55,737 bases of DNA, taken from the NCBI GenBank assembly GCA_937902455.1, contig CALELI010000144.1, positions 1-55,737 on the forward strand. Direction: 5' to 3'. Positions 1 to 54,590 of this stretch are shown here, piece by piece. A program made the translations under genes and the position numbers. The DNA is from an uncultured Prevotellaceae bacterium. Lineage in GTDB: Bacteria; Bacteroidota; Bacteroidia; Bacteroidales; Bacteroidaceae. Below the pieces are notes generated by a model, which worked only from the letters and a program-made list of their open reading frames with translations, was not told the origin of the DNA and made no database searches. Positions within the stretch are counted from its first letter, which is position 1; every line of letters begins with the position of its first letter.

Positions 1-38
1 ACGTCCGACTGTTGCTGTGTCGGTCGTGCGTGTCGCTG

Positions 39-218
39 TTACCATTCTTCTGCGCTGCCGAAGAGGTCGGATTCGATGTCCTCTGCGAAGTCGATCTGGC
101 TCTTAATGTCAAAATCTTTTGTTGGATCATCATCGAATCCAATGTAAGAAGCTGCAATCATACTGTGGAGAGCAATTGACTGGAATTCGATGGTCGGTTC
201 TATATAATTCTTTTTCAT
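39..218 (-). CDS. Unannotated 59-aa acidic small protein (MKKNYIEPTIEFQSIALHSMIAASYIGFDDDPTKDFDIKSQIDFAEDIESDLFGSAEEW)
   Basis: Hand translation gives ATG at 218-216 and TAA at 41-39, just under the 60-aa ORF-track cutoff. It sits 39 bp downstream of the LRR gene, exactly as its paralog 50933..51112 does. Motifs are conserved at the protein level (MKKNY..P, AS, IG, DIK, SDLFG, AEEW) while the nucleotides diverge. Confidence 0.6.
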   Translation of the reverse strand: MKKNYIEPTIEFQSIALHSMIAASYIGFDDDPTKDFDIKSQIDFAEDIESDLFGSAEEW

Positions 219-257
219 ATCTGAAAATCTTTCTTTTTACGTTAACACCTGTCCTGA

Positions 258-3200
258 TTATTTAGCAAGCTTCTTGACACCGTTCTGGATGTATACCTGA
301 CCCTTGGCCGGTGCTGCAATCTGACGGCCCATGAGGTCGAACATTGGAGCATTGAGGCTTTGTGCGTTGATGTCCTTGATGCCTGTTGCTTCCTCGTCGT
401 CGAGAACTACGAGCTTTACTGCATAAGGGTTAGCAAGTCCCTTAGTCTTCATGAAGATACGGCAAGCGTGAAGTGTCGCATCAGCTAATGCAGGGTGGAA
501 TGCGTTACTCTTGAGAGCATAGAATGGATTTGTTGGCGCACCCTTGCCATTATTGCCAGATTTTACATCGTCATAAGTGCCTTCGATAGTATATTCAGTA
601 TCAATGTCAGCAACAACAACCTTGTTAATTGGGTTGATAAGCTTACCCTTACTATCCCTAGCTCCATCATCGAATGTCTTCTTAATACCTACTGCATTGA
701 AAGTGATTTCCTCGGCACCTGGGATAAAGATGTAAGGTGTATTAGCCTTGACATCGCCCTTCTCTTCCACGAGTTCAAGGGTTGTGACAGGAGTTCCATC
801 GTTATCACCTACTGCGGTGTCATAGATTCTGTAGAACTTAGCGCCCTGCTTGTCAATATCCTGAAGTGTGAACGGTACAAACCAAGCCTGCAGATTGGTT
901 GGATTTGATACTTTACGAGTGTAGTGCACAAGCATCTTAGGGTCTGCTGTATTCACCTTGAGATGAGAGATTGTGTTGTCATCCGTGAAGGCAAGTATGC
1001 GGGTTGCATCATCATTGTCTATGTCAATCTGAACATCAAGACGTCCAGTATACAGACCTGACTTGATCTCGATAGCCTCACCTCTTGTAAATTTATGGGA
1101 ATCATTGAACAAACCATCACCAACCTCTGCATAGTAACCATCAAAACCAGATGGGATGTAAAGCTTACGAGGAATGTATTCCTGCTTTGTTCCACGCCAG
1201 TGCCATACTGCGTCTCCGAATGAATTTTCGTTAACTGTAATTTCATCGTCTGTCCAATTAACTGTCACGTCAGAAACTCCGACAAATGCACCATTGACAG
1301 CCTTTCCGTCAAATACATTTTGGCCGATTGAAGCTACAGACTTAGGGATGTTGATGCTTGTGAGCTTAGTGTTAAAGAAAGCCTTATCACTGAGTGTAGT
1401 TACGTTGTCACTGATTGTGAATTTGCTGATTGCAGTTCCTTCGAATGCGCTGGCACCGATAACATCATCGTACTTGGTCTTGGCGTTGTTGAAGGCGGCG
1501 AGCTTTCCGCAAGACTTGAATGCATTGTCACCCAGCTTAACTATTGCAGGTACGTTAGCACTTGCGCCACACCAACCAGTAGTGTTGTCTGTTTCGATAG
1601 CACAGAGGTTAACTGTCTCAAGTGCCTTGAAGTTTGTGAAAACATTTGCAAGATCAAGCTTATCAGCCTGAATGTTAACAGTCTGAATCTTCTCCTTCAA
1701 GACATACTTGTCGGAAGATTTTGCATTAGCAGGAACTCCTGAAAAGTCAAAGGCTGTAGTATAACCAGTTATTTCTTCTTCCTCATCCATAACTGGTGTA
1801 ACCTTAACACCTGCAACTTCATAATATGCATAAAAATCTTTGTTATTCTCACCTTCCTTTACAACTGTCTGAGGGAGGTTGAGCTCGTTTCCAGAGAAAA
1901 GAGCAGTATATTTTGCACCTTTATGCTTTCCGTCATTGTTGAAGTCTGTATTCTTATTGTCTTTGTTATCAGCACCCTTATATTGTGTCCACTGGCATAC
2001 ACCTGCAATCACAGCCTGAGGAGCCTCAGTGAAAGTTGCTTCAGTGCTGTACTCGTTACTCCAAGGAGCCACCTCATATTTGAATGCACCATTATAGAAT
2101 GTCTCAGTGCTTTCTATGGCTGGACGGGCAACTTTGATTATATTTGCATTTGACCAGTTGTAACCGTGCTCTTTGTCAGTTATAGTTGCATAAGCCTTCA
2201 TCAGACCCATTGGAACAACCAGAGTAGTTTTTTCTCCTGCACTACCAAGTGGAGAGTTGCTGTAATATACATTCTTTTTACCATCCCAATACCAAGAGTA
2301 TGATTCTATGACAGCAGATTTTGCGTACGGATCACTGATTTCCTTTGCAACGATCGTGATGGTTCTGTCATTAGACAAACTTCCTCCAAAGGCATTGTTG
2401 CCAATAGATGTCACTGTGCTTGGGATTTTGACATCCAAATAGGAGCGTGTGCCATTGAATGCATACCCTTCGATGCTGGTAACTTTTGTGTCTGTCAGGT
2501 TACATTTTTGAAGAGCATCACAATAAATAAATGCATTCCAACCTATTGTGGTAATGCTTTTTGGCAATACCACTTCAGTAATCCGGTTACTATTGAATGC
2601 GTCGTTAAAGTATGTCATATCGTCGAGTGCAGTGAAATCGAATTTCCCGGTAAGTCCGCAACATGGGAACGCACTACTTTCGTAATTGAGTTCTTTCTTG
2701 AGTTTTACACCACCACTGATAGGATCTGCTGGGAAGAGGTTGCAGAATTCTGCATTCGTGAGCCATCCGCAACCATAGAAAGCATAACTGCCTACCTTTG
2801 TTATCTTACCTTGGGAAACCACAGGGAAACGGAAATCAACTGATGTTGCATCTGGGTTAAATGCATATTCAAATGATGAACTTCCTATGGTTGTTAATGT
2901 AGCTGGAAGATAATACTTGCCTGCATCGTAATAGCCGAAGTGCTCAATTGATTTACAATATGCGAACGCACCGTTGCCTACAGTCGTAAGTGTGCTCTTA
3001 GGATCCAGTTCTACAGTCTTCAGGTTTTGAGCACTCTCGAAAAGATTAGAAGGGATTACAGAAATTGTTCCAAGCTTTACGGTTGAACCTACAGGGAAAT
3101 TAACAGCATAGAACGCATAGTTTCCTAATTGATTAACCTTGGAAAGGTCTAAAACGAATTGAGCGCCACCAGTCAGAGTTATCGGACGACTACTATCCCT

Positions 3201-3677
3201 ATCAGTAATAGTGCCCCAATCATATGTATACACTGTATATGGCGCAAAAGCATCTTCTCCAATTGTCTTAACACCTGTGAGTTCTGTTACATCGATAGTA
3301 CCAACTGTCGTTAACCAACTGAATGCCTGCTTTCCGATTGTCTTAATGTGACTACCAAGGGAAATAGAAGAAGTAAGCGCCTTGCCATTGAATGCACCGT
3401 GATCCTTGTCTGAAACCTCACCCTTAATAGCAGTACAGAAATACTCGTGACCATAGGAATCTTTGATGGCTTCAGTTCCAAAAGATGTGGATGTTCCTCC
3501 ATAGGAAACGAGCATAACCTCACCGGATGTCTTCGCGTTATCCACGGACGGGTCCTCGGTGGTAATCTGATACTTGTCACCGTTGGCAGTGAATGTGTCA
3601 CCCTCTCCGGCAAACGCACCAATGCTCATCCAGCTCATGAGAGCGAGAGCACCAAAACGTAAAATTGATTTTTTCAT
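258..3677 (-). CDS. BspA-type leucine-rich-repeat (LRR_5) surface protein with signal peptide and T9SS C-terminal sorting domain
   Basis: 1139-aa ORF. The N-terminal signal is MKKSILRFGALALMSWMSIGAFA. IGxxAF...L..I.IP.SV LRR units recur. The C-terminus ...DLMGRQIAAPAKGQVYIQNGVKKLAK is typical of a Por/T9SS CTD. Confidence 0.85.
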   Translation of the reverse strand: MKKSILRFGALALMSWMSIGAFAGEGDTFTANGDKYQITTEDPSVDNAKTSGEVMLVSYGGTSTSFGTEAIKDSYGHEYFCTAIKGEVSDKDHGAFNGKALTSSISLGSHIKTIGKQAFSWLTTVGTIDVTELTGVKTIGEDAFAPYTVYTYDWGTITDRDSSRPITLTGGAQFVLDLSKVNQLGNYAFYAVNFPVGSTVKLGTISVIPSNLFESAQNLKTVELDPKSTLTTVGNGAFAYCKSIEHFGYYDAGKYYLPATLTTIGSSSFEYAFNPDATSVDFRFPVVSQGKITKVGSYAFYGCGWLTNAEFCNLFPADPISGGVKLKKELNYESSAFPCCGLTGKFDFTALDDMTYFNDAFNSNRITEVVLPKSITTIGWNAFIYCDALQKCNLTDTKVTSIEGYAFNGTRSYLDVKIPSTVTSIGNNAFGGSLSNDRTITIVAKEISDPYAKSAVIESYSWYWDGKKNVYYSNSPLGSAGEKTTLVVPMGLMKAYATITDKEHGYNWSNANIIKVARPAIESTETFYNGAFKYEVAPWSNEYSTEATFTEAPQAVIAGVCQWTQYKGADNKDNKNTDFNNDGKHKGAKYTALFSGNELNLPQTVVKEGENNKDFYAYYEVAGVKVTPVMDEEEEITGYTTAFDFSGVPANAKSSDKYVLKEKIQTVNIQADKLDLANVFTNFKALETVNLCAIETDNTTGWCGASANVPAIVKLGDNAFKSCGKLAAFNNAKTKYDDVIGASAFEGTAISKFTISDNVTTLSDKAFFNTKLTSINIPKSVASIGQNVFDGKAVNGAFVGVSDVTVNWTDDEITVNENSFGDAVWHWRGTKQEYIPRKLYIPSGFDGYYAEVGDGLFNDSHKFTRGEAIEIKSGLYTGRLDVQIDIDNDDATRILAFTDDNTISHLKVNTADPKMLVHYTRKVSNPTNLQAWFVPFTLQDIDKQGAKFYRIYDTAVGDNDGTPVTTLELVEEKGDVKANTPYIFIPGAEEITFNAVGIKKTFDDGARDSKGKLINPINKVVVADIDTEYTIEGTYDDVKSGNNGKGAPTNPFYALKSNAFHPALADATLHACRIFMKTKGLANPYAVKLVVLDDEEATGIKDINAQSLNAPMFDLMGRQIAAPAKGQVYIQNGVKKLAK

Positions 3678-3906
3678 GTTGTTAAAAAATTTAGTTGAAC
3701 AAAATTGTTGATAAACACTTAATATTATGTTGTTAATACATCATTATGTTGTCTGTTGTTTACACCTTATTATATATTATATATAGTATAGCTTCAATCT
3801 TCAGGATTCGGATTCATAATCATCCATCCCGTTGTATCGTCATAGCGCAGTAAATCCGACCGACGTGCACCGTGTGCAGCCTGCCGTTCCCGTGTCCAGT
3901 GTGTAC

Positions 3907-3914
3907 CAAATCTA
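3907..3914 (-). promoter_or_regulatory. Candidate Bacteroidetes -7 box TAGATTTG for the LRR gene, inside the conserved 5' block
   Basis: The minus strand reads TAGATTTG (TAnnTTTG consensus). The identical block is present upstream of the paralog at 54185-54192. No clear -33 TTTG was seen. Confidence 0.4.
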
Positions 3915-4029
3915 TTGTCATTTTCTCATATATTTATGTCCTACTCATCAGTTTCCGGCCATCATCCAGCACCCTCGATTTCCAGCGTTCTTTATTCGAC
4001 CGTTTAATTCTTAACCTACTAAATCGCCA

Positions 4030-4061
4030 CAAAGTTATATTTTTTTTCTATATTCACCAAA
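4030..4061 (-). promoter_or_regulatory. Candidate full promoter: -33 TTTG, a 20-nt spacer containing an A8 run, and -7 TAACTTTG, pointing toward the LRR gene
   Basis: The minus strand reads cTTTGgtgaatatagaaaaaaaataTAACTTTG. The spacing fits the 19-21 nt Bacteroides consensus. This element is found only in cassette A. Confidence 0.4.
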
Positions 4062-4285
4062 GATTTTTTGCATTTTTTTATGTTTTAACACTTTTTTTGG
4101 TCAAAATAGGCGAAAAAAATGTTTTTTTTTTACAAACTTATAGAAAAAGGTGTAAATGGGGAAGGGAGAATGAAGGGATTTCGTGGATTCAACGGTAAAT
4201 CCCTGCGTCCGTGTGGTTAGCGCTTTCGCGGGGGAAAGTTCCCTTTAGGGGTCGAAGCAAGACACAGGGGTGCATGTGAGCCGAT

Positions 4286-4942
4286 TTAGGATGGAGGGTC
4301 CTTCTTGATTGGTGTTGGTTTCTTGCGGCGTTGGAGGAGGGCATGTAGGTGCTGGTCCTGTCGGGCAAAGGTGAGGAATGTGTCGCGGCACACGTTGAAC
4401 TGCCGGCAAACGGACGCTATGGTTTCGCCGGAGGAGATGAGGATGGTGATCTTTGCCTTGTTGTTTTCGAGGTGTGCCATCTTCGGACAGCTTCCCTTCC
4501 TCCGTCCCAGGGTCACCCCTTCCGCCCTGCGGAGTGCGAGGGCTTCCTTTGTCCGCAGGGAGATGAGCTTCCTCTCGATCTCCGCCACGAGTCCGAAGGC
4601 GAAGCAGAGGACTTTGCTGTTAATGGTGTCGTCGAAGGTGTAGCCTTCCTTTATGCAATGGAGGACGATGCCTTTCCTTACGCATTTCTCCATGATGACC
4701 ATGATGTCGGTGAGTGTCCTGCTGAGTCGCGAGACTTCGGTGACGAGGAGAGTGTCTCCGCCCTTCATGCTGTTAAGCACCCGTCCGAGTTTACGGGAGG
4801 ACTGTTTCTTCTTTCCGCTGACGACCTCTGTCACCCATTTGTCGATGACTATTGACTGCTTGAGCGAGTAGCTCTCGATTTCGTTACGCTGGTTGTCTAA
4901 CACTTGTTTTGCCGTGCTGATTCTTAAATAAGCTATTACCAT
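4286..4942 (-). CDS. Small serine recombinase (resolvase/invertase family) with C-terminal HTH
   Basis: 218 aa. The N-terminal MVIAYLRISTAKQ carries the catalytic Ser motif. GDTLLVTEVSRLSR, AEIERKLISLRTKEAL and LGRRKG are characteristic, and the C-terminal tail is HTH-like. Confidence 0.85.
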   Translation of the reverse strand: MVIAYLRISTAKQVLDNQRNEIESYSLKQSIVIDKWVTEVVSGKKKQSSRKLGRVLNSMKGGDTLLVTEVSRLSRTLTDIMVIMEKCVRKGIVLHCIKEGYTFDDTINSKVLCFAFGLVAEIERKLISLRTKEALALRRAEGVTLGRRKGSCPKMAHLENNKAKITILISSGETIASVCRQFNVCRDTFLTFARQDQHLHALLQRRKKPTPIKKDPPS

Positions 4943-5040
4943 ATTGAACGTTTATTTTTATACCTTATATGTAATATAACGAAATTAGGAATGAAAAATG
5001 AAGAATTTTACCCTTAGATTTACGTCAGATTTATGGAAAG

Positions 5041-5210
5041 ATTGATTTTATCTTGTCTCGGCTGCACTCGGGATAGCAATCAAAAGAGTTTTGTTGCGGC
5101 TTCGCCCCTCCGCCGCCATAGGAGATATGGCTCCCCTTTGCGCGGGCAAACATACATAATGTTTGCTTATCCGCAGTCGCCTCTCATTTGCACGAGCCAT
5201 CAAGCGAAGC
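5041..5210. repeat. Intergenic repeat element R1 with a nested ~80-bp insertion. It is an inverted copy of 11452..11540.
   Basis: atcttgtctcggctgcactcgggatagca...gtcgcctctcatttgcacgagccatca matches the reverse complement of 11452-11540. Roughly 5097-5175 is extra sequence containing the hairpin gcaaacat/atgtttgc. Confidence 0.8.
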
Positions 5211-6035: not shown

Positions 6036-6061
6036 AATTGCCAAAATAAATACCGATTTAT

Positions 6062-7643: not shown

Positions 7644-7677
7644 GACCCTACCTAACCTCCCCTTTTAAGGGGAGGAA
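7644..7677. repeat. REP-like hairpin element gaccctacctaacctccccttttaaggggaggaa. An identical inverted copy lies at 50637..50670.
   Basis: The 34-nt sequence is an exact reverse-complement match. The internal stem is cctcccctt/aaggggagg. It sits just after the cysS stop and may also act as a terminator. Confidence 0.85.
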
Positions 7678-7715
7678 TTCAGAAGTGGATGGTCTGGAGT
7701 TGATAGGTTAAAGAA

Positions 7716-7740
7716 GGCTAATGGCTAATGGCTAATGGCC
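7716..7740. repeat. Heptamer-periodic tract (ggctaat)n
   Basis: ggctaatggctaatggctaatggcc. The same word family (gccatta) occurs at 17630 and 18784. Confidence 0.8.
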
Positions 7741-7758
7741 AAATTATGAATTAAATAT

Positions 7759-11451: not shown

Positions 11452-11540
11452 GCTCGCCTGATGGCTCGTGCAAATGAGAGGCGACCAACAAACTCGTTTG
11501 AGTGCTATCCCGAGTGCAGCCGAGACAAGATTAAATCAAC
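11452..11540. repeat. Intergenic repeat element R1 (short copy), inverted relative to 5041..5210
   Basis: Reverse-complement match to both arms of the element at 5041-5210. Confidence 0.8.
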
Positions 11541-17610: not shown

Positions 17611-17750
17611 TTAACCTATAACCTTTATTGCCATTAGCCATTGGCTGTTAGTCATTTTACATTAGTCATTCATTGTTAACTGTTAACTATTAACTGATAA
17701 CTAAATTTAAAACTGGCTCTCAACTCTAAACTCTACACTCTACACTCTAA
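17611..17750. repeat. Intergenic spacer built from heptamer-periodic tracts (gccatta, ttaactn, ctctaca)
   Basis: ccattagccattggctgttagtcatt...ttaactgttaactattaactgataact...ctctaaactctacactctacactcta. Confidence 0.8.
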
Positions 17751-18782: not shown

Positions 18783-18855
18783 TAGCCATTAGCCATTGGC
18801 CATTAGCCGTTAGCCTTTTTTTCACTATTCACTATTCACTGTTCACTGTTCACTC
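18783..18855. repeat. Heptamer-periodic tracts (gccatta)n followed by (tcactnt)n
   Basis: agccattagccattggccattagccgttagcc...tcactattcactattcactgttcactgttcact. Confidence 0.8.
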
Positions 18856-19698: not shown

Positions 19699-19873
19699 GT
19701 AAAATTAACTGAAAAAAACATATAATGTACCAAAATAAGTAAATAGACGAATGGTTTCCGAGGGTCGCGCGTGCGGAGGCGGAAGGCTATGCGAGTGGAG
19801 TCGGGGTCGGATTTGTGTGGAGATGAAGTCGGGGTTGAAGTGGGGCTCATTCGGGTTTGTACTGAGGTGTAGT

Positions 19874-19961
19874 CTGAAAGATAGTTATCTTACGGCGTGA
19901 AGATAGTTATCTTACAGGCGAAAGATAGTTATCTTACGGGGTGAAGATAGTTATCTTTCAG
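19874..19961. repeat. Array of four 14-bp palindromic units AAGATA-GT-TATCTT at an exact 22-bp period, capped by ctgaa/ttcag
   Basis: Units lie at 19878-19891, 19900-19913, 19922-19935 and 19944-19957. The spacers are acggcgtg, acaggcga and acggggtg. Related arrays occur at 50289-50350 and 54818-54839. Confidence 0.9.
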
Positions 19962-20086
19962 AACACGCATCAGTTCAAGGGTGAGCAAACGACAGTACAA
20001 ACCTGAATGACAGTGCGTTCGACTCTGATGACATGACTGCAGGAATATGGCCGTATGAGCCGTTTATCGACCCTACCTGACAAGAT

Positions 20087-25915: not shown

Positions 25916-26596
25916 TTAGCAGAATCCTAAGCTCTTCACGAAGAATGCGACTACGACAGCAACGAAGAGCAGCATGACGAGTGTAACGTATACGATACCG
26001 ATTACTCTCCAGCGATTGAACCAGATGTGTCCGTTCCAGCCGAGAGTCTGGATTGCACTCCAGAAACCATGAGTGAGGTGGAACCAGATAGCAAGAAGCC
26101 ATACGATGTAGAGAACAACGAAGATAGGATTGCTGAATGTGTCCTGAATGTATGCGAAACCATCGGAAGCACTGTGACCACCCATGAATGGAGTTCCGAG
26201 GAGTTCTGCAAACATCATGTTGTACCAGAAGTTGAAGAGATGCAGCAGCAGACCGAGAACTACGATGATTCCGAGAACGAACATGTTCTGTGATGCCCAT
26301 TCCACCTTCTCAGGCTTGCTTGTTACTGCATAACGATTGTTACCACGTGCCTTCTTGTTCTGGATTGTGAGGATGAAAGCATACACGATGTGAATAACAG
26401 CGAGTGCTGCTAATGCCAGTGTAGCCACAACTGCGTACCAGTTGGCACCTAAGAATTCACAGACTGCATTGTAGGCGTCACCACTGAAGAGTGCCACTGC
26501 ATTCATACATCCGTGAAAGGTAAGGAAGAGAATGAGGCAAATTCCAGTAACGGACATAACCACTTTCTTTCCTACAGATGAACTAATTAACCACAT
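25916..26596 (-). CDS. frdC: Fumarate reductase/succinate dehydrogenase cytochrome b subunit
   Basis: 226-aa polytopic membrane protein. It is the first gene of the frdCAB order typical of Bacteroidetes. Confidence 0.9.
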   Translation of the reverse strand: MWLISSSVGKKVVMSVTGICLILFLTFHGCMNAVALFSGDAYNAVCEFLGANWYAVVATLALAALAVIHIVYAFILTIQNKKARGNNRYAVTSKPEKVEWASQNMFVLGIIVVLGLLLHLFNFWYNMMFAELLGTPFMGGHSASDGFAYIQDTFSNPIFVVLYIVWLLAIWFHLTHGFWSAIQTLGWNGHIWFNRWRVIGIVYVTLVMLLFVAVVVAFFVKSLGFC

Positions 26597-32937: not shown

Positions 32938-32981
32938 CATTAATCAAACATTAATCTGAACATTAATCAGACATTAATAAT
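32938..32981. repeat. Four CATTAAT words at ~11.5-bp phasing. This is the left arm of an inverted repeat around the GxxExxY gene.
   Basis: cattaatcaaacattaatctgaacattaatcagacattaat. The 19-mer acattaatcagacattaat (32960-32978) recurs as its reverse complement at 33478-33496 and 33501-33519. Confidence 0.85.
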
Positions 32982-33466
32982 TCTATCAAGTGCTCATTCG
33001 CAACATTTGTTTCAAATAATTTGTTGTAATCAACATCATATACAGGATTCATTTCCTTGTCAACAACAAAACACTTGTTGCTGCTGGAATCTAAGGCCCA
33101 TCTTTCACAAATCAAGTCCTCTTCTCCAAAGTTGATTAACAGTCCTATAGGCTTTCGTGTCAATCGCAAATAATTGCATAATTGAGCCCGATGTGCAGGT
33201 ATGATATGTGAAACGGATTTAAGTTCAACTATAATGTCATTGTTCACGACAATGTCCATTTTATATTGTTTGTCAAGTTTTTGTTTTTTGTAGAATACAT
33301 CAATTGATTCTTCTCTATTGTTTGTTATTCCCCTTGAAATGAGTTCCACACTAAGTGCTTCTTGATATACAGGTTCAAGCAATCCCCAGTTTAGTTCACG
33401 ATGTACAGTCATTGCAGCACCGATTATTTCGTAAACCAATTTTGCATATTGCTTATGTATGTTCAT
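32963..33466 (-). CDS. GxxExxY protein (PD-(D/E)XK nuclease-like family)
   Basis: 167 aa. The motif GLLEPVYQEAL matches G..E..Y. The last codons (ELLMSD*) are encoded by the flanking repeat. Confidence 0.8.
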   Translation of the reverse strand: MNIHKQYAKLVYEIIGAAMTVHRELNWGLLEPVYQEALSVELISRGITNNREESIDVFYKKQKLDKQYKMDIVVNNDIIVELKSVSHIIPAHRAQLCNYLRLTRKPIGLLINFGEEDLICERWALDSSSNKCFVVDKEMNPVYDVDYNKLFETNVANEHLIELLMSD

Positions 33467-35481: not shown

Positions 35482-35581
35482 AAGGTCAATGCATTAATAA
35501 TGCGATGCCATTTGCATTAATAATGCATCGTCCATTGCATTAATAATGCATTTGCCATTGCATTAATAATGCGTTGACCTT
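35482..35581. repeat. Array of four 13-bp palindromes GCATTA-A-TAATGC at an exact 23-bp period, capped by aaggtcaa/ttgacctt
   Basis: Units lie at 35491-35503, 35514-35526, 35537-35549 and 35560-35572. Confidence 0.9.
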
Positions 35582-35665
35582 GTTCTCAGGTATTGCGCAC
35601 CTTGTTTTCAGGTATTGTGTGCCTTGTTCTCAGGTGTGGTTGACCTTCATTTCAGGAATAGATGT
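35578..35665. repeat. Four 22-bp direct repeats ccttgttctcaggtattgcgca (degenerating), abutting the palindrome array
   Basis: Unit starts are at 35578, 35600, 35622 and 35644. Confidence 0.85.
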
Positions 35666-43112: not shown

Positions 43113-45977
43113 ATGCGCAAAGTATTACTCATTATTGCCACACTGTTCATTGCGTGTGGCGTACAGGCAAAGAAGATCAAGGTTCAGGATGCAGAGCTGA
43201 TAGCACGTCAGTTCGTTGCCGGCAATAGTGCCCGACCACTGGATCTCGCCTACACATTCTCTACGGGAGACAAGCCGGATCTCTACATCTTCAACAAGTC
43301 GTCAAGGGACGGATTCGTTGTTATCGCTGCTGATGACGTGGCCGATAACCTCGTACTGGGATATTCCGACAGAAGTCTCTTCGACAAGGATGACATTCCG
43401 GAAAACCTCAGATGGTGGCTGGGAGAGTATCAGAAGCAGGTTAACCATGCCCGCGAGAAAGGCTACAAGTCTTCTTCACGCAAGAGTGGCAGGAAGTCGG
43501 ACAACATTGTCGTTGCTCCGCTGCTCGGCAATCTTGCATGGGGTCAGGGTGCACCATACAACAACCTCTGCCCTATGGATGGCAAGAGTCACAGTGTGAC
43601 AGGTTGTGTGGCTACCGCAATGGCACAGATTATGTACTACAATAAATGGCCACTCAAGGGAAAGGGCAACCATTCCTATGTATGGAAAGGCGATACAATA
43701 AGTGTCGACTTCAGCAAGTCGGTGTACGACTATTCCAAGATGAAACTGACCTACGACACATACACCGAGGAGCAGGCAAATGCAGTTGCAGTGCTGATGC
43801 GCGACTGTGGTGTCAGCATCAACATGCAGTACTCAGCTACTAGCAGCGGTGCCTATGATGTGGATGTTCCAAAAGCACTGACGACATACTTCGACTATAG
43901 TCAGTCAGTAAAGTTACTGGACCGTTCTGAGTATAAGACTATGGATGAGCAGTGGGAGAACACAATCCGTAAGGAACTCGATGAACGCAGGGTTGTCTAT
44001 TATTCCGGTCAGGGTGATGCCGGAGGTCATGCCTTTGTGTGCGATGGATATAAGGACAACGGCTTCTTCCACTTCAACTTCGGATGGTCGGGCGGCAGCA
44101 ACGGATATTTCGTTACCAAGGCAATCACAACCTCTTCTGGATCGTTTAACCTGAATCAGATGATCATCATAGGACTCAAGTCGAAGAACAAGCAGAAAGT
44201 GGGTAGCCTCTATTACAGCATTTCAGGTGAGAGTAGCGTTGCCGTCCAGAGTCCTGACACTCCGTCGGAATATTCAGGCGACATGATAGTTCCGGCATCA
44301 GTCACTATCGATGGCAAGAACTATCAGGTCACTGAACTCTCCGCATACGCATTCAACGGGACGGATATAACTACTCTCCATATTCCTTCATCCGTGACAA
44401 TCATCGGTTCGGGAGCCATTGCCGGCTGCAAGAGCCTCAGGAACATTGTGGCAGAATGGACTTCTCCGGAAAACGTGAACATGACCAACGATGCACTCGG
44501 CGACGATATATACTACAGTGTCCTTCTGACAGTTCCTGCCGGATGTATTGAGACCTATTGCAATACTGCCCCATGGTGGCTGTTCTCCACAATAAAGGAC
44601 ACGAAGGGCGAGTCTGTCACATTCTCCTCATGGAAGGATTTCTATGCCGGTACAGGTACGTTCTACTATAGTGCAGCACTGAGTGGACAGGATCCAGGAC
44701 TGTCAATCCAGTATCGTGAGAACACAGCCGACCCTGATCAGCAGCAGATTATCATCGCCAACTGGGGAGGTGGAGTCAACCTGATGATAAAGTACGACAA
44801 GGCTAATGACCGTTATGTCGTTCCACGCCAGAACTCGAAGATCTCGTCCAGCGTTGGTGATGTCTACGTGGCCGACATGCCGACAGCATATCCTGACCAG
44901 TACACGTATGAAACCTGTCCGAACACATACGATGCCAAGAAAGGACAGCTCTGGCTGTATCTGGCTTACACAGACATTAATAAAGAGATTAACTTTGGCT
45001 ATGGGCAGGAACTGTTCCAGCTCGACGGCTATCCGGACTATTCCGTCAGCGTGGAGACAAAGACCCTGACGGAGCAGTCCGACGGTTCTGCATTCCAGCT
45101 TACGAGCTTCGAATGGGGCGAAGGCATCACGACTGTGAAATATGCACTTGTTCCGGAGCACATCACGAGATATGATCAGCTTGATGAATGTATTGCCGGT
45201 ATGCTCGACGGTACTATCGAGACAAAGACAGTATCGGAGAGAATGAAGAACCGTACGGTCATCACCCTTCCGCACGAAGGTAAGTATACCATTATCGCAA
45301 TCGGGTTCGATAAGGATGGGGAATACACCTCCTATGATTTATGCACCGTCACATTCTCAAGTGCTGCTTCATGGGTTGCCATCGGACAGGCAACATACAC
45401 CGATGACATCATCGGTTCTCTCTTCGGCATGGATCCAGTCACATACAAGGTCGACATGGAAGCCAGCACCGTCACTCCTGGAGTCTACAGGATGAAATAC
45501 CCGTACGGTCCGACATACCCATACAACGAGGATGGCGACTATGCTGCAGGCAAGACCTATGACATAGTCATCAATGCGTCCGACCCCGACTGCGTCTACA
45601 TCGAAGAGCAGAAGACCGGATGTGACTGGGGATACGGCAACATGATCATCATGTCAATGGGCTATTATGATGTGGCATACCAAGGCTACGACTGGGCACA
45701 GGTCAAGGCCGAAGGACAAGGAGGCCAGCTGAAGGACAATGTCATCACGTTCCCTGCTTATGGCATAGTAGTTGTACTCAATGACGGTGCCTATTATGCC
45801 AACAGAAATGCTGGGTTTGCACTCGACCTCACAGGAACCCATATTCCTGATGCCATTGAGGATAACCTTGCAACCCGCACCGCCACAGCCGTCACCTACA
45901 ACCTCCAGGGCCAGCAGGTCGATGGCGGCTACAAGGGCATCGTCATCCAGAACGGCAAGAAGATGCTGAAACGATAA
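43113..45977 (+). CDS. Multidomain C10 cysteine peptidase: pro-domain, C10 catalytic domain, BspA-type LRR, module shared with 41137..42978, and T9SS sorting domain
   Basis: 954 aa. The Cys context is [18 protein letters not shown] and the His context is GGHAFVCDGYKDNGFFHFNFGWSG. The LRR region is ...NYQVTELSAYAFNGTDITTLHIPSSVTIIGSGAIAGCKSL. The CTD is ...AVTYNLQGQQVDGGYKGIVIQNGKKMLKR. Confidence 0.88.
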   Translation: MRKVLLIIATLFIACGVQAKKIKVQDAELIARQFVAGNSARPLDLAYTFSTGDKPDLYIFNKSSRDGFVVIAADDVADNLVLGYSDRSLFDKDDIPENLRWWLGEYQKQVNHAREKGYKSSSRKSGRKSDNIVVAPLLGNLAWGQGAPYNNLCPMDGKSHSVTGCVATAMAQIMYYNKWPLKGKGNHSYVWKGDTISVDFSKSVYDYSKMKLTYDTYTEEQANAVAVLMRDCGVSINMQYSATSSGAYDVDVPKALTTYFDYSQSVKLLDRSEYKTMDEQWENTIRKELDERRVVYYSGQGDAGGHAFVCDGYKDNGFFHFNFGWSGGSNGYFVTKAITTSSGSFNLNQMIIIGLKSKNKQKVGSLYYSISGESSVAVQSPDTPSEYSGDMIVPASVTIDGKNYQVTELSAYAFNGTDITTLHIPSSVTIIGSGAIAGCKSLRNIVAEWTSPENVNMTNDALGDDIYYSVLLTVPAGCIETYCNTAPWWLFSTIKDTKGESVTFSSWKDFYAGTGTFYYSAALSGQDPGLSIQYRENTADPDQQQIIIANWGGGVNLMIKYDKANDRYVVPRQNSKISSSVGDVYVADMPTAYPDQYTYETCPNTYDAKKGQLWLYLAYTDINKEINFGYGQELFQLDGYPDYSVSVETKTLTEQSDGSAFQLTSFEWGEGITTVKYALVPEHITRYDQLDECIAGMLDGTIETKTVSERMKNRTVITLPHEGKYTIIAIGFDKDGEYTSYDLCTVTFSSAASWVAIGQATYTDDIIGSLFGMDPVTYKVDMEASTVTPGVYRMKYPYGPTYPYNEDGDYAAGKTYDIVINASDPDCVYIEEQKTGCDWGYGNMIIMSMGYYDVAYQGYDWAQVKAEGQGGQLKDNVITFPAYGIVVVLNDGAYYANRNAGFALDLTGTHIPDAIEDNLATRTATAVTYNLQGQQVDGGYKGIVIQNGKKMLKR

Positions 45978-46100: not shown

Positions 46101-49100
46101 ATGAAAAAACTTCTTACTCTCATTGTGGCTATGGGAATGACTGTAGCCGTGAGTGCTCAGGATCTGCCGAAGGCTGTCTTCATGCTCGACTTCGAGGGCG
46201 TGACCAGTGCGGAGGCAATCGGGGCAGAACAGGTTGGCGACGGAGAATTCCGTGTGAGCGAAAACGCCAACTTCGGTACTTATTACCAGAACAAGCCTAA
46301 CGGTACGGAGAAGACTTCTCACGTCAACTACCTCATCGTGCCTTCCCAGGGCTTCATCAATGCTCAGGCACAGAACGGCCAGCAGGTTTCCATCTGTCTC
46401 TGGGTGAACGGTACGGTTGCAAACGCTATCGGTGTCGACCATTTCTATTCAACACTGATTTCGGCCTACAACTCAAGTAGCAGTTACAAGATGTGGCAGT
46501 GGCCTATGTTCAGTGCCCGTGCCAGAGGTACGTTGCAGATCAACTGTGGTGGATGGAGCGACTTCGTGGCAGGCGAAAGTGCAACAGGTGTCGTAGTCGA
46601 GAACAACGACTGGATCAAGAACAACGTTGGCGAGAACTTCGATGACAACTGGCATTTCGTTGCTATCGTCATTGACGGACAGAACTACAAGTACTACATC
46701 GACAATGTCATCGTAAACGAATGGAACACCAATGCCACGGAAGGTAGCAACAACTATCAGTTCACAACCGTGATGGATCAGCTCGACCAGATATATCTCG
46801 GCGACTGTGGTCCGTTCTGGCAGGATGAGGACCCAGCCTATGCATACGACGACGTTGCCATCTATCCTTCGGCACTCACTTCCGATGATATCCAGCTCAT
46901 CATGGACGTAAAGCAGGGCAAGCTTACTCCTGAAATACTTCTCATGGTTGCGAAGAACAAATACCAGGTTGCATTCGACGACCTCACAGCCTATGCAGGT
47001 CAGATTGGTGAGGACGGCTACACTCTGCTCGGCCAGACTCTCGATGACTATGCAATGGAATATACTATTGAGGAGGAAACCGTTGAGGCTTACAACAAGG
47101 GAGCAAACGACATGGCTGCAAAACTTGCAGAGGCACAGGCTGTCGTAAAGCAGTGTGAGGCATTCAAGGCTGAATGCGCAGCAATCGAGGCATTTGCCAA
47201 TGCAACTCAGTATCCAGGCTACGAGGCATTCATGAGTGCCCTGGGTCTTGCAACTCCAGATTATTCAGCCCTGACATCTGCAGAGCCTGTAGCTGAGGGC
47301 AAGGTAAAGCTTGCAGAGGCTAAGGCTGCATATCTCTTCTCACAGGAACTTCCTGCCGACGGTTCGGGTATCGTAGTCACAAAGATGATCCAGCACCCTT
47401 GGTTCGTGGAAGAGGCAATGGAGCCGACCCTTGACGAGAATGGCCTGGCAACATATCCTACTGACAATCCTGGTGCCTACCTCAACAACGGTGGCTGGGA
47501 GAACACAAGCACTGTCCCTGGTTCCGACTGTACGATGTACTACACTCAGGGACGTACCACATGGAACAACTTCCATTCATCAACAGTAGTGGGTGGAATC
47601 CTCGACATCCATCAGACAGTCGGAGGTCTCAAACCAGGCTACTACACAGTAAGTGCAGACATGGCAAGTAGTTCTGCTGCATCCGACAACCATGTATATG
47701 CATCAGCAAATGATGCCCTGCGCGTTTCTCCAGTCTTCTCAGGATTCGGATGGGATGCCGTGGAGACAGGTATTGCAAAGTGGGAAACCCTCACAACCGA
47801 CAAGATTTATGTAGGTGAGGACGGAACATTGCTTCTCGGAGCTACATCCACAACCAACGGAGATATGTACACTGGCTGGTATTGTGCAACTAATTTCGTC
47901 CTGACGTACTACGGAACGGACGTTGACCTGGACGCAGAACTTGCCGCCAAGGTTGAGCAGGCTAACAGCACCATTGCCGACATGCAGCTCGGAGGCGACA
48001 TAGCTAAGGCAAACGAACAGCTGAAGGCCGTCCTTGAAAGCAACATGACCGACTACGACAAGATTTCACAGATTTCTTCCTACATCACCGACGAATGGAA
48101 CAAGTGGATTGCAGCAGAGACGAGCTTCACTTCGCTTGACGATTTCACGGTATTTGCCGAGACTGAGGAGGATTCTGAACTTCAGGCAATCGAACTTGCA
48201 GTAATCAAGAACCTGAATGCAACTTTCTCCACAATCACTTACGACCAGCTTCCTAAAATCACTGACACATACAAGGAATTCGTGGTCTACTCTTCTATCG
48301 TGAAGGATGCAAAGGCGTGGGGCAAGACAGAAAAACTCGCCGAGCAGTTTGCTGCACTGAAGGGTGACTTCACTCTGGCAGACCTGAAAGGCTACGGCGA
48401 CGAACTCATCGGTCTCATGAAGGCTGACATCGCGTCAAAGGATGCTTCCAAGGAGAATCCGGTTGATGTGTCATTCCTTATCAAGAATGCTTCATTCCGC
48501 ACAAACGACAGCTACATGTGGGAAGGCGATGTCCCTGCTGTATCGTTCAACGAGGCTGAGTTCTTCAACAGGAACTTCGATATCCACCAGACTCTCACCG
48601 ACATGCCTAAGGGTATGTACCGTCTCGTTGCAAAGGGTTTCTACCGCGACGGTGCAAACGATGTGGCATTGCCTAAATATCCGGCAGCTACTGCCTACAA
48701 CGTAAAACTCTATCTCAATGATGCAGTGGGCAATCTCCATGCTTGGGCTTCCGACTCTCTCGTAGTGGCAGACGGCAGCGACCCTTACAGCGATGATGAC
48801 TATACTGAGTCGTTCATGGCATACTATCCTAACTCCATGTCAACCGGAGCACAGTACTTCGCTGACGGATATTATGCAGGCAGTTTCGCCGAATATGCTC
48901 ACGAAGAGGATGGCGACATCACTCTCGGTCTCAAGAAGCAGGCAACCATTGCTAACGACTGGGCTCTCTTCACTGACTTCGAACTCTATTATCTCGGCAA
49001 TGCCATGCCTTCACGTACAGATGACTATCGCGTCACTTGCGGTGAAGAAGGAAACGTAGACTATGCATTCTGGGAAGTATTCTCTGACTACTATACTCTC

Positions 49101-50108
49101 AAGAACGGCAACACAGCACACTTCCAGTTCACCAACAACAGCGACATGGTGAACAACTGGGACAACTGGATTCTCGTGGCAGCCAACGGCGAGAGAGGCA
49201 GTGAAGGCTACAAGGAGTACTTCGTTCTCCGTGCCGACAACTACGGCTGGGGCGATCTCTACGGAACAGGTACACTCGTATGCGACTACAACTGGGATAC
49301 ATTCAAGCAGGACATGAATGGTGCAGAAGTCGACATGAACGTCACTTACAAGAACGGCATGGCCGACATGGTAGCAACCATCGTGACAGTTGACGGCAAG
49401 ACCTATCACTACTCTGCAACTGGTTTCACAGGCATCACAGATGAGGAAATCACACTCTTCTTCACTACCGAGAAGGCTAATCTCCAGAATGGCATAGCCA
49501 ACTATCTCGTCACTTGCGGCGAAGCAGGAAACGTAAGCTACGGATTCTGGGAAGTATTCTCCGACTACTACACTCTCAAGAACGATCACACAGCACACTT
49601 CCAGTTCACTAACTACAGTGACATGGTAAATAACTGGGACAACTGGCTTCTCGTGGCAGCCAACGGTGAGAGAGGCAGTGAGGGCTACAAGGAGTACTTC
49701 GTTCTCCGTGCCGACAACTACGGCTGGGGCGACCTCTACGGAACAGGCTCACTCGTATGCGACTACAACTGGGATACATTCAAGCAGGACATGAATGGTG
49801 CAGCAGTCGACATGAACGTAACTTACAGCAACGGCAAGGTCGACATGGTGGCAACCATCGTGACAGCCGACGACAGTAAGTCATACAACTACTCTGCAAC
49901 TGGTTTCGCAGGCATCACCGACGAAGAAATCACACTCTTCTTCACTACTGAGAAAGCCAACCTCCAGGGCGAGTACGTAACAGCCATTGACGACGTTCCG
50001 TCAGTCATCCCTGCAAGCACTACTGCTTATAACCTCCAGGGACAGGTTGTCGGAGCCGACTACAAGGGCATCGTCATCCAGAACGGCAAGAAAATGCTGA
50101 AGAAGTAA
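46101..50108 (+). CDS. Large T9SS-secreted protein: LamG/concanavalin-like N-domain, helical linker, beta-sandwich/CBM-like domains, tandem 159-aa repeat, and C-terminal sorting domain
   Basis: The likely start is MKKLLTLIVAMGMTVAVSAQ (the track start 46056 is a TTG). The LamG-like block is ...NWHFVAIVIDGQNYKYYIDNVIVNEW.... The CTD is ...AYNLQGQVVGADYKGIVIQNGKKMLKK. Confidence 0.8.
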   Translation: MKKLLTLIVAMGMTVAVSAQDLPKAVFMLDFEGVTSAEAIGAEQVGDGEFRVSENANFGTYYQNKPNGTEKTSHVNYLIVPSQGFINAQAQNGQQVSICLWVNGTVANAIGVDHFYSTLISAYNSSSSYKMWQWPMFSARARGTLQINCGGWSDFVAGESATGVVVENNDWIKNNVGENFDDNWHFVAIVIDGQNYKYYIDNVIVNEWNTNATEGSNNYQFTTVMDQLDQIYLGDCGPFWQDEDPAYAYDDVAIYPSALTSDDIQLIMDVKQGKLTPEILLMVAKNKYQVAFDDLTAYAGQIGEDGYTLLGQTLDDYAMEYTIEEETVEAYNKGANDMAAKLAEAQAVVKQCEAFKAECAAIEAFANATQYPGYEAFMSALGLATPDYSALTSAEPVAEGKVKLAEAKAAYLFSQELPADGSGIVVTKMIQHPWFVEEAMEPTLDENGLATYPTDNPGAYLNNGGWENTSTVPGSDCTMYYTQGRTTWNNFHSSTVVGGILDIHQTVGGLKPGYYTVSADMASSSAASDNHVYASANDALRVSPVFSGFGWDAVETGIAKWETLTTDKIYVGEDGTLLLGATSTTNGDMYTGWYCATNFVLTYYGTDVDLDAELAAKVEQANSTIADMQLGGDIAKANEQLKAVLESNMTDYDKISQISSYITDEWNKWIAAETSFTSLDDFTVFAETEEDSELQAIELAVIKNLNATFSTITYDQLPKITDTYKEFVVYSSIVKDAKAWGKTEKLAEQFAALKGDFTLADLKGYGDELIGLMKADIASKDASKENPVDVSFLIKNASFRTNDSYMWEGDVPAVSFNEAEFFNRNFDIHQTLTDMPKGMYRLVAKGFYRDGANDVALPKYPAATAYNVKLYLNDAVGNLHAWASDSLVVADGSDPYSDDDYTESFMAYYPNSMSTGAQYFADGYYAGSFAEYAHEEDGDITLGLKKQATIANDWALFTDFELYYLGNAMPSRTDDYRVTCGEEGNVDYAFWEVFSDYYTLKNGNTAHFQFTNNSDMVNNWDNWILVAANGERGSEGYKEYFVLRADNYGWGDLYGTGTLVCDYNWDTFKQDMNGAEVDMNVTYKNGMADMVATIVTVDGKTYHYSATGFTGITDEEITLFFTTEKANLQNGIANYLVTCGEAGNVSYGFWEVFSDYYTLKNDHTAHFQFTNYSDMVNNWDNWLLVAANGERGSEGYKEYFVLRADNYGWGDLYGTGSLVCDYNWDTFKQDMNGAAVDMNVTYSNGKVDMVATIVTADDSKSYNYSATGFAGITDEEITLFFTTEKANLQGEYVTAIDDVPSVIPASTTAYNLQGQVVGADYKGIVIQNGKKMLKK
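49021..49974 (+). repeat. In-frame tandem duplication, 2 x 477 bp (159 aa), inside the large T9SS gene
   Basis: cgtcacttgc at 49031 recurs at 49508. Both copies encode ...VTCGE.GNV.Y.FWEVFSDYYTLKN..TAHFQFTN.SDMVNNWDNW.LVAANGERGSEGYKEYFVLRADNYGWGDLYGTG.LVCDYNWDTFKQDMNGA.VDMNVTY..., and most residues are identical. Confidence 0.92.
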
Positions 50109-50163: not shown

Positions 50164-50288
50164 TTGCGCTTGTCTGCCACTGATATAGCGCAGACATTAC
50201 CGTGCGTGAATGCTTGTATTATCAGCCTTGAACGCACGCTTTATCTGTCTTGTACTGAGGCTTTTTACAGTTTGAGCTGAGGCTTAGT

Positions 50289-50350
50289 CTGAAAGATAGT
50301 TATCTTCATGGCGAAAGATAACTATCTTCATGCCGTAAGATAACTATTTA
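50289..50350. repeat. Array of three AAGATA-NN-TATCTT units at a 22-bp period, with mixed centre orientation (GT, AC, AC)
   Basis: Units lie at 50293-50306 (GT), 50315-50328 (AC) and 50337-50350 (AC, degenerate). The leader tgtactgagg...tagtctgaaagatag resembles the leader at 19858. Confidence 0.88.
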
Positions 50351-50396: not shown

Positions 50397-50636
50397 TAAA
50401 GGGAATGATATACATGTTGACTAATTGATGCCCGAATATATTATACGACCTTTGTTTAACTGAACATGCAGACATTTTAATCGCAGAGAAAATCTTGCCT
50501 TGTCAGGTCTGCATCAGCATGTTGCTGTAATCCTCAAAACTCGCAAGGCTCGCTTTGGTCTTACATCCTCATGCTTATGCAAAACATCCCTGATGTTTCA
50601 AGATTTTTGCAGAGAAGCAGAGATGTCGCAGAGAAG

Positions 50637-50670
50637 TTCCTCCCCTTAAAAGGGGAGGTTAGGTAGGGTC
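50637..50670. repeat. REP-like hairpin element, inverted identical copy of 7644..7677
   Basis: ttcctccccttaaaaggggaggttaggtagggtc is the exact reverse complement of 7644-7677. Confidence 0.85.
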
Positions 50671-50857
50671 ATTCTTTGCGATCCCTCTGCGCCTCTGCGA
50701 TGCAACTCGTAGGTTTTTGTGAGCAAAAACTAATATATGGCTTGGTGTAATTAATTATTCAAGTTCCCACTACACACCACTTCACAAACACAGGGGTTTT
50801 ACGAATGAGTCCATTTTTGTGGGGAAAACAGGTGGGTGCAGGTGTTTTTTAACAGCA

Positions 50858-50883
50858 AAGAGCAGGCAAATTGCCTGCTCTTT
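50858..50883. terminator. Perfect 26-bp palindrome/hairpin downstream of cassette B (probable terminator of the LRR-small ORF unit)
   Basis: aaagagcaggcaa/ttgcctgctcttt, about 50 nt after the stop of the 59-aa ORF. There is no canonical T-run on the minus strand. Confidence 0.4.
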
Positions 50884-50932
50884 GGGTATTGAGGACGTCC
50901 GACTGTTGCTGTGTCGGTCGTGCGTGTCGCTG

Positions 50933-51112
50933 TTACCATTCTTCTGCGCCGCCGAAGGACTCGTTGCCGAAGAGGTCGGATGAGATGTCCTCAAAGTCCT
51001 TGATGTCGGCATCATGTGTTGCATCACCACCAATTGGAATACTTGCTTCCATGATATGCTCGCAAACGACAACTGAAGCTACGATTGCCGGTTTGAAATA
51101 GTTCTTTTTCAT
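50933..51112 (-). CDS. 59-aa acidic small protein, paralog of 39..218 (MKKNYFKPAIVASVVVCEHIMEASIPIGGDATHDADIKDFEDISSDLFGNESFGGAEEW)
   Basis: The internal Met of track ORF 50933-51148 gives the same length, the same N-terminus MKKNY..P and the same C-terminus AEEW as cassette A. It lies 39 bp after the LRR gene stop. Confidence 0.6.
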   Translation of the reverse strand: MKKNYFKPAIVASVVVCEHIMEASIPIGGDATHDADIKDFEDISSDLFGNESFGGAEEW

Positions 51113-51151
51113 ATCAATAACTTTCTTTTTAGCCGTTAATACATACATTGG

Positions 51152-53971: not shown

Positions 53972-54184
53972 GTTTTAAAAAATTTAGTTGAACGAAATTG
54001 TTAATAAACACTTAATATTATGTTGTTAATACCTTATTATGCTGTTTACACCTTATATATTATATATAGCATGGCTTCATCATTGATGGCTTCATGTTCC
54101 GTCATCGCGCTGTATCGTCATAATGCAGTGAATCCGGCCGACTCGCACCGTGTGCAGCCCGCCGTACATGTGTCCAGTGTGTAC

Positions 54185-54192
54185 CAAATCTA
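54185..54192 (-). promoter_or_regulatory. Candidate -7 box TAGATTTG for LRR paralog B (the same conserved block as 3907..3914)
   Basis: Identical surrounding sequence gtgtccagtgtgtaccaaatctattgtcattttctcatatat. Confidence 0.4.
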
Positions 54193-54590
54193 TTGTCATT
54201 TTCTCATATATATATGCATTGTCCTTTCGTCTCCGGCCATCATCCAGCACCCTCGAGTTTCAGTGCCCATTATTCGACCGTTTAATTCGTGATTCACCCC
54301 CAACACAGTACCTTGTAGGGCACATTCCAATGACTCGAAAATGCCCATTTTTGTACATAATTGCCCTCAAACCCCACTACAGGCCCTTCTGAGCGGGGTC
54401 GGCTTTGTTCCAAAAATGCCCGGAAAATGGGGTCGTCACTGTCCGCATTGACCATGTGTCTTTTTCACGCAAAACGAGGATTATCAGTCGGTAAGTACTC
54501 TGACTTGAGCAAGAACTTGCATCCTTGCGCCGTAACAGTACATGGTTTCAAGTGTTCAGCATAATTTCAGTGGCTCACGAAACAAAAAAT

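Follow-up and report, generated by a model that had tools for sequence, protein, structure and literature searches.

Surface variation in gut Bacteroidales is known mainly from invertible promoters and shufflons. Recombination between genes with conserved ends is a familiar bacterial route to adhesin variation, and here we describe it in an uncultured gut-type Bacteroidales. The stretch analyzed, hereafter the window, is one whole 55,737-nt contig (CALELI010000144.1 of assembly GCA_937902455.1, from an uncultured Prevotellaceae bacterium) that carries two cassettes, A and B, each encoding a large protein with BspA-type leucine-rich repeats (LRR). The evidence points to A and B being members of a lineage-specific operon family whose ends serve as arms for ordinary homologous recombination, an explanation that we hold to be probable, though well short of certain.

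In Helicobacter pylori, recombination between the babA, babB and babC loci produces chimeras and locus swaps, and genotypes differ among strains (PMC4552749). As in the bab family, the genes described here are paralogs with homologous 5′ and 3′ regions, and two metagenome contigs (L013 and L022, below) are the counterpart of the bab recombinants. By contrast, the Bab proteins are beta-barrel outer membrane proteins, and intragenomic conversion has been described for bab whereas only population-level recombinants were found here. The conserved unit of our cassettes, unlike that of bab, includes an upstream block, a downstream small open reading frame (ORF) and a terminator, and it has no CT-repeat phase switch. 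The KLIKK proteases of Tannerella forsythia are type IX secretion system (T9SS) cargo that combine a near-identical C-terminal domain with different cores and have a small ORF by each gene; the family is variable by strain or species, and recombination is not mentioned in that study (PMC4404884). The KLIKK cores are proteases, unlike ours, and their small ORF encodes an upstream lipoprotein that is dissimilar among copies, whereas the small ORF here lies downstream and encodes an acidic, non-lipoprotein product with a conserved N-terminus. BspA-type LRRs are found in T. forsythia BspA and in Prevotella intermedia AdpC and AdpF, which are listed among T9SS cargo, and T. forsythia has several BspA homologs that vary among strains (PMC7014623; PMC11969387). 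The likeness of A and B to these proteins is limited to the LRR_5 repeat type, and any adhesin role of A and B is putative. Antigenic variation by gene conversion (pilE/pilS, vlsE, tprK) and the recombinase shufflons (vsp/vpma of Mycoplasma, Mpi or Tsr systems of Bacteroides) share with the present locus conserved ends, variable middles and segmental mosaics, and shufflons share an adjacent recombinase gene as well. Here, however, no lone expression site accompanied by silent, promoterless copies is seen and inverted sites are absent; each of the two copies appears capable of expression.

Cassettes A (1–4010) and B (50626–54288) are complete transcription units, both on the minus strand. Each opens with an upstream block of 317–333 nt, followed by a gene for a putative signal peptide, an LRR body of the BspA type and a short tail at the C-terminus; after a spacer of 39 nt come a small acidic ORF (59 aa) and the terminator. 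An earlier, sequence-only reading of the window had described two minus-strand cassettes of the same architecture, with a 39-nt gap and a 59-aa acidic ORF in each, and this description was borne out: the ORFs agree with it, the spacer measures 39 nt in A and B, and the small ORF is 59 aa in both copies when counted from a conserved start. The repeat unit extends through the terminator hairpin, which in B is at 50857–50883 and for A falls outside the contig, where it is visible in L001, a metagenome contig that is 99.95% identical to cassette A and reaches beyond the window start. The unit probably also takes in a ~240-nt tail 3′ of the terminator. The parts of the two cassettes are as follows.

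1–38, minus strand: 3′ flank of cassette A, conserved and holding a small hairpin (5–23) (1–63 is 98% identical to 50895–50957)
39–218, minus strand: small acidic ORF A, 59 aa, MKKNY..P....IAL..MIAAS and then an acidic tail
219–257, minus strand: 39-nt spacer from the LRR gene to the small ORF, equal in length in A and B
258–383, minus strand: tail of LRR protein A, resembling a short T9SS C-terminal domain (CTD), T/GIKDINAQSLNAPMFDLMGRQIAAPAKGQVYIQNGVKKLAK; includes the 41-nt stretch 310–350 that is identical in A and B
258–3677, minus strand: LRR protein A, 1139 aa, with putative signal peptide, BspA-type LRR body, ~200-aa all-beta module and short tail
3678–4010, minus strand: upstream block A, haplotype a-a-a, with a 36-nt invariant core at 3892–3927 and its edge at 3992–4010
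50626–50856, minus strand: Z-type tail, which goes with B-type 3′ ends and ends at a 34-nt palindromic element (50637–50670)
50857–50932, minus strand: terminator hairpin (50857–50883), kept in all cassettes, and conserved 3′ flank of cassette B
50933–51112, minus strand: small acidic ORF B (59 aa, counted from the conserved start)
51152–53971, minus strand: LRR protein B, 939 aa, with ends as in A
53972–54288, minus strand: upstream block B, of haplotype b-b-b; its invariant core is 54170–54205

When 1–5000 was compared with the whole window by BLASTN, two shared blocks only were returned, one at the upstream end (3621–4010/53915–54288, 83% identity) and one at the downstream end (1–419/50895–51313, 76%). 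Within the latter, the single mismatch between 1–63 and 50895–50957 follows 55 identical bases, and the last ~94 nt of the LRR coding sequence (CDS) contain 5 mismatches and a 41-nt exact run (310–350/51204–51244). The first 38 nt of the LRR CDS are identical in A and B. The LRR cores, by contrast, show no detectable nucleotide similarity and only 28% amino-acid identity. These comparisons, in which the ends align and the cores do not, agree point by point with what the sequence-only reading had judged: a 3′ flank identical for 55 nt, near-identical CDS ends, a 5′ region about 80% alike and strongly diverged LRR cores. The contrast between ends and cores is also evident in codon choice. Where two proteins agree in a residue, they also agree in its codon at 78–87% of positions within the 19 first and 36 last codons compared with 43–47% in the cores (all pairs of the four core types A, B, C and D; Fisher p 1e-3 to 3e-6). 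This indicates that the history shared by the ends is more recent than that of the cores.

The same ends were found on further cores. A profile search based on A and B recovered three proteins, P0047, P0048 and P0049, that have the same putative signal peptide, MKK[SV][IF]LR[FL]GALALMS, and the same last ~35 residues, with cores 33–34% identical to A, and exhaustive HMMER searching with the last 251 aa yielded seven close clusters at 50% identity (A, B, C, D, P0166, P0167 and P0168). At least seven core types bear the same ends, and the additional copies supposed by the sequence-only reading do exist in this form. In DNA, the contigs L014–L018 have the same block, tail-coding stretch, 39–40-nt spacer, small-ORF start and terminator. 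The more distant relative L018 (GCA_045628285.1, JAZQPD010000075.1, 749–9100) carries two LRR genes in tandem, of 1651 aa and 1013 aa and 80 nt apart, that share one block, one small ORF, the terminator and a Z-like tail; the signal peptide of its first LRR gene was missed by the gene caller. Two metagenome scans gave 0 matches and 3 chance matches, respectively, and a scan of genome contigs gave one irrelevant locus.

The downstream part of the unit is likewise conserved among these cassettes. The small ORF starts in both A and B at a conserved ATGAAAAAGAAYTAT (an upstream ATG lengthens the listed ORF B to 71 aa) and is intact, at 49–67 aa, in 8/8 cassettes examined despite strong divergence; its N-terminus, MKKNY.xP....[IV]AL.NMIAAS, is conserved and its tail is acidic. 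It matches no Pfam or NCBIfam family, and the sole database relative of small ORF A is itself; we take it to be a real gene of unassigned role. After the terminator, there are two alternative ~240-nt tails, X and Z. The X tail accompanies the A, C and D cores and the Z tail the B, B′ and E cores and an A/B chimera. Past the window start, L001 has the same terminator as B and then a ~235-nt tail of the X type, and the Z tail of cassette B in the window is common to L013, L017 and L022 and, more distantly, L018.

Natural recombinants were found in which the crossovers lie in these ends. The contig L022 (ERZ27247120, MEGAHIT k141) is A-type in its core as far as the 41-nt stretch that A and B share exactly, and the crossover falls within this stretch. 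On its 3′ side the remaining CDS and the small ORF are B-type, and the Z tail follows. Assuming from the contig name that the final k was 141, single reads must cross this 41-nt junction. The contig L013 (ERZ1767598) combines the 3′ part of the recombinase gene that neighbors cassette A, and A's flank, with a block that is an A-like/B-like mosaic and a core 96.6% identical to B. Its block haplotype, b-b-a, is shared with L014, including the private variant GCACGGCGGCC, although the cores of the two differ and L014 derives from another sample and another assembler. In a four-gamete test of the upstream block, 34 of 171 informative site pairs fail, and among Logan runs at the recombinase junction four have the b-type distal block and four the a-type. 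The uniformity of the block is that of two haplotypes reassorting across the population, rather than within this genome. Most Logan recombinase contigs stop exactly 30 nt into the block, which would imply a second block copy elsewhere in the same sample if these contigs were built with k=31, as we assume.

Cores vary in patches as well. The B and B′ cores are 100% identical over ~2.5 kb save for a ~250-nt patch of 67–79% identity that includes an indel and for which no donor was found among the known cassettes, and between C and C′ segments of 100% identity alternate with segments of 42–70%. Mutagenesis of the diversity-generating retroelement type was considered and rejected, as no reverse-transcriptase gene was found among the ORFs scanned and the B′ patch includes an indel.

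The loci also differ between strains in their presence. A 126-kb contig of the same species (GCA_045628625.1) is syntenic with window positions 6053–50347 at 89–98% nucleotide identity; at the edges of this segment it has no recombinase, no cassette A and no cassette B. To the left of the segment it carries instead a different LRR_5/Big_2 protein and to the right chromate-transporter, KduI and SDR genes. The LRR_5 and Big_2 protein is 1322 aa long and lies left of cysS, in a region (L023, 2169–7569) that also holds the two ORFs after it, so that the flank left of cysS seems to attract LRR surface-protein genes in general, as a hotspot. The sequence-only reading had anticipated cores swapped between conserved ends, and such chimeric and swapped cassettes occur in other assemblies with crossovers inside the ends. 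It had also named what would tell against it, namely that the lineage have only these two copies, that they be syntenic and stable in all related genomes and that their ends be no more conserved than neutral sites of other paralog pairs; we found further copies, loci that are absent from a close strain and ends conserved well beyond the cores.

The conserved ends might alternatively be explained by purifying selection only, acting on promoter, leader, signal peptide and sorting signal, with A and B being old, stable paralogs that do not recombine. The conserved parts are indeed functional modules, and the tail motifs occur in more than 300 other protein clusters. The 36-nt core of the upstream block (3892–3927 in A) is invariant in every cassette and holds TAGATTTG at 3907–3914, and in the distant L018, whose block is only ~71% identical, the core is almost unchanged and TAGATTTG is kept. 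The Bacteroidetes −7 promoter consensus is TAnnTTTG, which TAGATTTG matches; if this served as a promoter element, the leader would be ~220 nt long. However, selection of this kind does not account for synonymous codon identity that is far higher at the ends, for the mosaic block haplotypes and clean chimeras, or for the absence of both loci from a strain that is 89–98% identical over the syntenic segment. Moreover, the codon test, together with the 55-nt exact non-coding match beside saturated cores, rules out protein-level selection alone. We thus regard the selection-only explanation as very unlikely.

Several other properties of the upstream region were examined. No structured leader RNA was detected: Rfam gave no match on the whole window, and the RNAalifold fold was weak with an unfavorable covariation term. 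An antisense ORF in the block (3832–4014, plus strand) was rejected as coding, because the differences between A and B are spread 11/11/8 over the codon positions. The distal edge of the block is sharp and consists of a 19-nt sequence, GAATTAAACGGTCGAATAA (3992–4010 in A), that is identical in A and B and present in exactly two copies in the window.

Mosaics could also arise in the computer. In this scenario, repeat chimeras, bubble popping or a contig of a metagenome-assembled genome (MAG) that merges two strains would account for the recombinants and even for the presence of A and B on one contig. Consistent with this, both L013 and L001 were assembled by SPAdes at low coverage from a single sample, the identical runs of 36–55 nt could mislead small-k graphs, and the ends of the window seem to meet in an AAA-ATPase gene (32/33 nt), although a circle is implausible with cysS, sdhAB and ddl on it. 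By contrast, L014, L015 and L022 are k141 contigs (final k taken as 141) whose junction runs are ≤60 nt, so that single reads bridge them; the same mosaic haplotype is present in independent assemblies with different cores; and the a/b polymorphism recurs at the same junction in 8 separate SRA runs. New core types, moreover, cannot be produced by artefact. Taken together, these observations make an assembly origin improbable.

The contig ends themselves bear on this question. The first 55 bases of the contig are an exact repeat also present in cassette B, and we infer that the contig start is a k=55 assembly-graph break due to copy B. The sequence-only reading had taken the start of the contig inside the repeat to suggest that more copies exist; copy B by itself suffices to explain the break, and further copies are not needed to account for it. 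At the other end lies the following gene.

55013–55737, minus strand: 3′ part of an AAA-ATPase/PDDEXK_9 gene, truncated where the contig stops; L001 terminates in sequence that matches its end

The final 33 nt of L001 (5287–5319) match window positions 55705–55737 at 32/33 positions inside this gene, suggesting that both contig ends may meet in one AAA-ATPase gene, that is, in a circular graph with a ~1.45-kb gap. A circular graph conflicts with the housekeeping genes on the segment and with the synteny data. The end match may instead reflect AAA-ATPase paralogs that are near-identical, a duplication or the merging of two strains in one contig, any of which would explain it. A 57-kb plasmid or circle was ruled out, as cysS, sdhAB, ddl and alr-murF lie on the segment, which is chromosomal and syntenic in the 126-kb contig of the same species; a plasmid search gave no match.

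A recombinase gene neighbors cassette A and raises the question of a dedicated system.

4286–4942, minus strand: serine recombinase, neighbor of cassette A; Pfam Resolvase 2.7e-32, resembles the Mpi family

Its score against NCBIfam NF009949 is 238 bits, below the cut-off of 272. The gene lies 275 nt from block A and adjoins a block in 11/11 other contigs that bear it, and most of these break or diverge exactly at 5043, a second variable junction, where L003 has AbiEii genes. Such an arrangement would be expected if the adjacent Mpi-like recombinase drove programmed cassette exchange or phase variation, as in Hin/fljBA, Mycoplasma vsp/vpma and the Mpi promoters of Bacteroides. The breaks of recombinase contigs at both sides of the gene, the sharp 19-nt block edge shared by A and B, and the small ORF after each LRR gene, which recalls fljB-fljA, would fit this model. 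The sites that it requires, however, are not seen. A and B repeat in direct rather than inverted orientation, no inverted copy of the block edge exists even when up to 3 mismatches are tolerated, the Mpi site consensus yields chance-level matches with none near the cassettes, and no inverted block was present in any contig examined. The only inverted repeat that flanks block A is an 18-nt pair (3759–3776/4139–4156) that is specific to A and at which no contig breaks occur; on these grounds an invertible promoter was rejected, and inverted-repeat scans of both upstream regions had nothing in common. The breaks 30 nt into the block fit k=31 (assumed) and a repeated block, the crossovers lie inside long identical stretches and not at one fixed site, and L015 and L018 have no recombinase at the corresponding position by the block. 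We therefore consider recombinase-driven exchange unlikely, and no sign was found that the recombinase takes part in the variation of the cassettes. As an observation in its own right, the left arm (5042–5207) of an inverted element described below lies 100 nt upstream of the recombinase start.

Equally doubtful, in our estimation, is a fuller version of the same idea, in which a dedicated exchangeable cassette would run from block edge to tail, its exchange promoted perhaps by the Mpi-like recombinase, with the small acidic protein as a partner (for example a chaperone, or a regulator that would restrict expression to one cassette) and true antigenic variation of T9SS-anchored LRR adhesins as the outcome. 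No silent copies were found: none is truncated, and A, B and all cassettes with an assembled 5′ side have a full ORF, a start codon and a putative signal peptide. Most cassettes also have an upstream block, the exception being the second gene of L018, which follows the first after 80 nt. The cassette system proposed by the sequence-only reading thus holds in the loose sense of a recombining family of paralogs and alleles and lacks the marks of a dedicated system.

We consequently favor general recombination between the conserved ends. In this mechanism, the ends would be conserved for expression, export, anchoring and possibly a partner protein, and their long near-identical stretches would double as homology arms for general (RecA-type) recombination, be it from one paralogous locus to another or from strain to strain following DNA transfer. 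The outcome would be that core types and block haplotypes are reassorted, that chimeras form and that short patches are imported into cores, such that the surface-exposed LRR part varies over the population while secretion and regulation stay constant. Several observations weigh against this explanation. The upstream blocks of A and B differ by 17% in the window genome, so homogenization within the genome is weak, and selection on mRNA or regulatory sequence could lift synonymous identity at the ends somewhat. In all contigs with the recombinase, the gene is next to cassette A, and under purely general recombination this would be a coincidence. All recombinants come from metagenome assemblies of different samples, with no event within one clone, and between-strain exchange is therefore inseparable from intragenomic gene conversion; L013, as a low-coverage SPAdes contig, could be partly chimeric. 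The proposal of the sequence-only reading that recombination keeps the ends uniform accordingly finds support in the younger history of the ends and the crossovers within them, but fits less well with upstream blocks that are only 83% identical within the genome.

The proteins encoded by the cassettes are of the BspA type. Pfam LRR_5 (PF13306) matches A with 161.7 bits (E 1e-48) and B with 170.7 bits (E 2e-51) against a gathering cut-off of 27.7 bits, in 4 stretches each, and the NCBIfam LRR adhesin model scores 56–85 bits against a cut-off of 1250. The N-terminus, MKKSILRFGALALMSWMSIGAFA, has the basic, hydrophobic and A-x-A layout of a Sec signal peptide as judged by eye. The tail (AT/GI ... 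MFDLMGRQI ... KGQVYI ... NGVKKLAK) is about 41 aa long. P. intermedia short CTDs are 43–55 aa long and show the cleavage motif PT/GI and then motif B (aromatic..G + basic), motif D (G.Y-I) past a short gap, and motif E (K/R), with a predicted three-stranded sheet (PMC11969387). By eye, our tail is like these in motif order and spacing (cleavage Ile, B, D and basic E), and it differs in having Phe for the conserved Tyr in motif B and one more residue in motif D. In an AlphaFold2 model of the last 251 aa (pLDDT, the predicted local distance difference test score, 84), an all-beta module is followed by a disordered linker (208–219, pLDDT <50) and then by short strands (pLDDT >90). The curated T9SS CTD models (TIGR04183/PF18962 and type B) gave no match on the tail at Pfam E ≤ 0.01 and NCBIfam E ≤ 1, and none of the T9SS genes porK/L/M/N, sov and porU/V is on this contig. 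The T9SS CTD called by the sequence-only reading is thus favored by the motif resemblance to Prevotella short CTDs and disfavored by the curated models; the tail is probably a T9SS short CTD, and T9SS export of the LRR proteins is plausible.

The all-beta module that precedes the tail comprises ~200 aa (residues 889–1100 of LRR protein A, window positions 375–1013), with the motifs W.A.YVPF, ANTPY, F.GTY, YAL and R.YM. Proteins that are otherwise unrelated, in more than 300 clusters with similar tails, carry it at the C-terminus, and it has no Pfam match and no PDB fold match at E <0.01.

The remainder of the window contains other repeats. One element occurs as an inverted pair of copies at 5042–5207 and 11454–11539 (50 nt at 94% and 32 nt at 97%); the left copy holds an 85-nt insert, and together they enclose 6.3 kb with a PDDEXK_7 remnant, cysS and genes for a 5′-nucleotidase and an arabinofuranosidase. 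A 34-nt element, GACCCTACCTAACCTCCCCTTTTAAGGGGAGGAA, has two perfectly complementary copies 43 kb apart, at 7644–7677 and 50637–50670; the latter is where L013 and L022 cease matching the window downstream of cassette B. Two inverted-repeat pairs each enclose a single ORF, one pair at 25819–25865/26811–26857 (47 nt, 96%) around a 226-aa ORF (25916–26596) and the other at 32936–32979/33477–33527 (44 nt, 91%) around a 167-aa ORF (32963–33466). Intergenic repeat arrays (19835–19990, 50250–50347 and 54808–54835; 7711–7748, 17630–17670 and 18785–18811; and 35487–35665) are built of the units AAGATAGTTATCTT, GCCATTAGCCATTGGC and 22–23-nt tandem units CATTAATAATGC/CCTTGTTCTCAGGT, and related arrays are present in L003 and L014. 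Finally, two large secreted proteins (43113–45977 and 46101–50108) end in a short tail of the same kind, YNLQGQ..YKGIVIQNGKKMLKK, and agree there at 86% over 74 nt. A relative of the first is a Peptidase_C10 protein, and the second, which is without a Pfam domain, contains an internal 477-nt tandem duplication (49024–49323 versus 49501–49800, 92%).

Cassette loci of this kind break assemblies and can yield chimeric MAG contigs. Two uncharacterised conserved parts, the small acidic ORF and the ~200-aa all-beta C-terminal module, are flagged by our analysis, and the short T9SS tail pattern, on the resemblance described above, would be extended beyond Prevotella intermedia. For the gut Bacteroidales, reshuffling of discrete, highly diverged LRR types at conserved operon ends would represent another route to surface variation, and the LRR proteins are probable targets of diversifying pressure, be it from phage, host antibody or partner cells.

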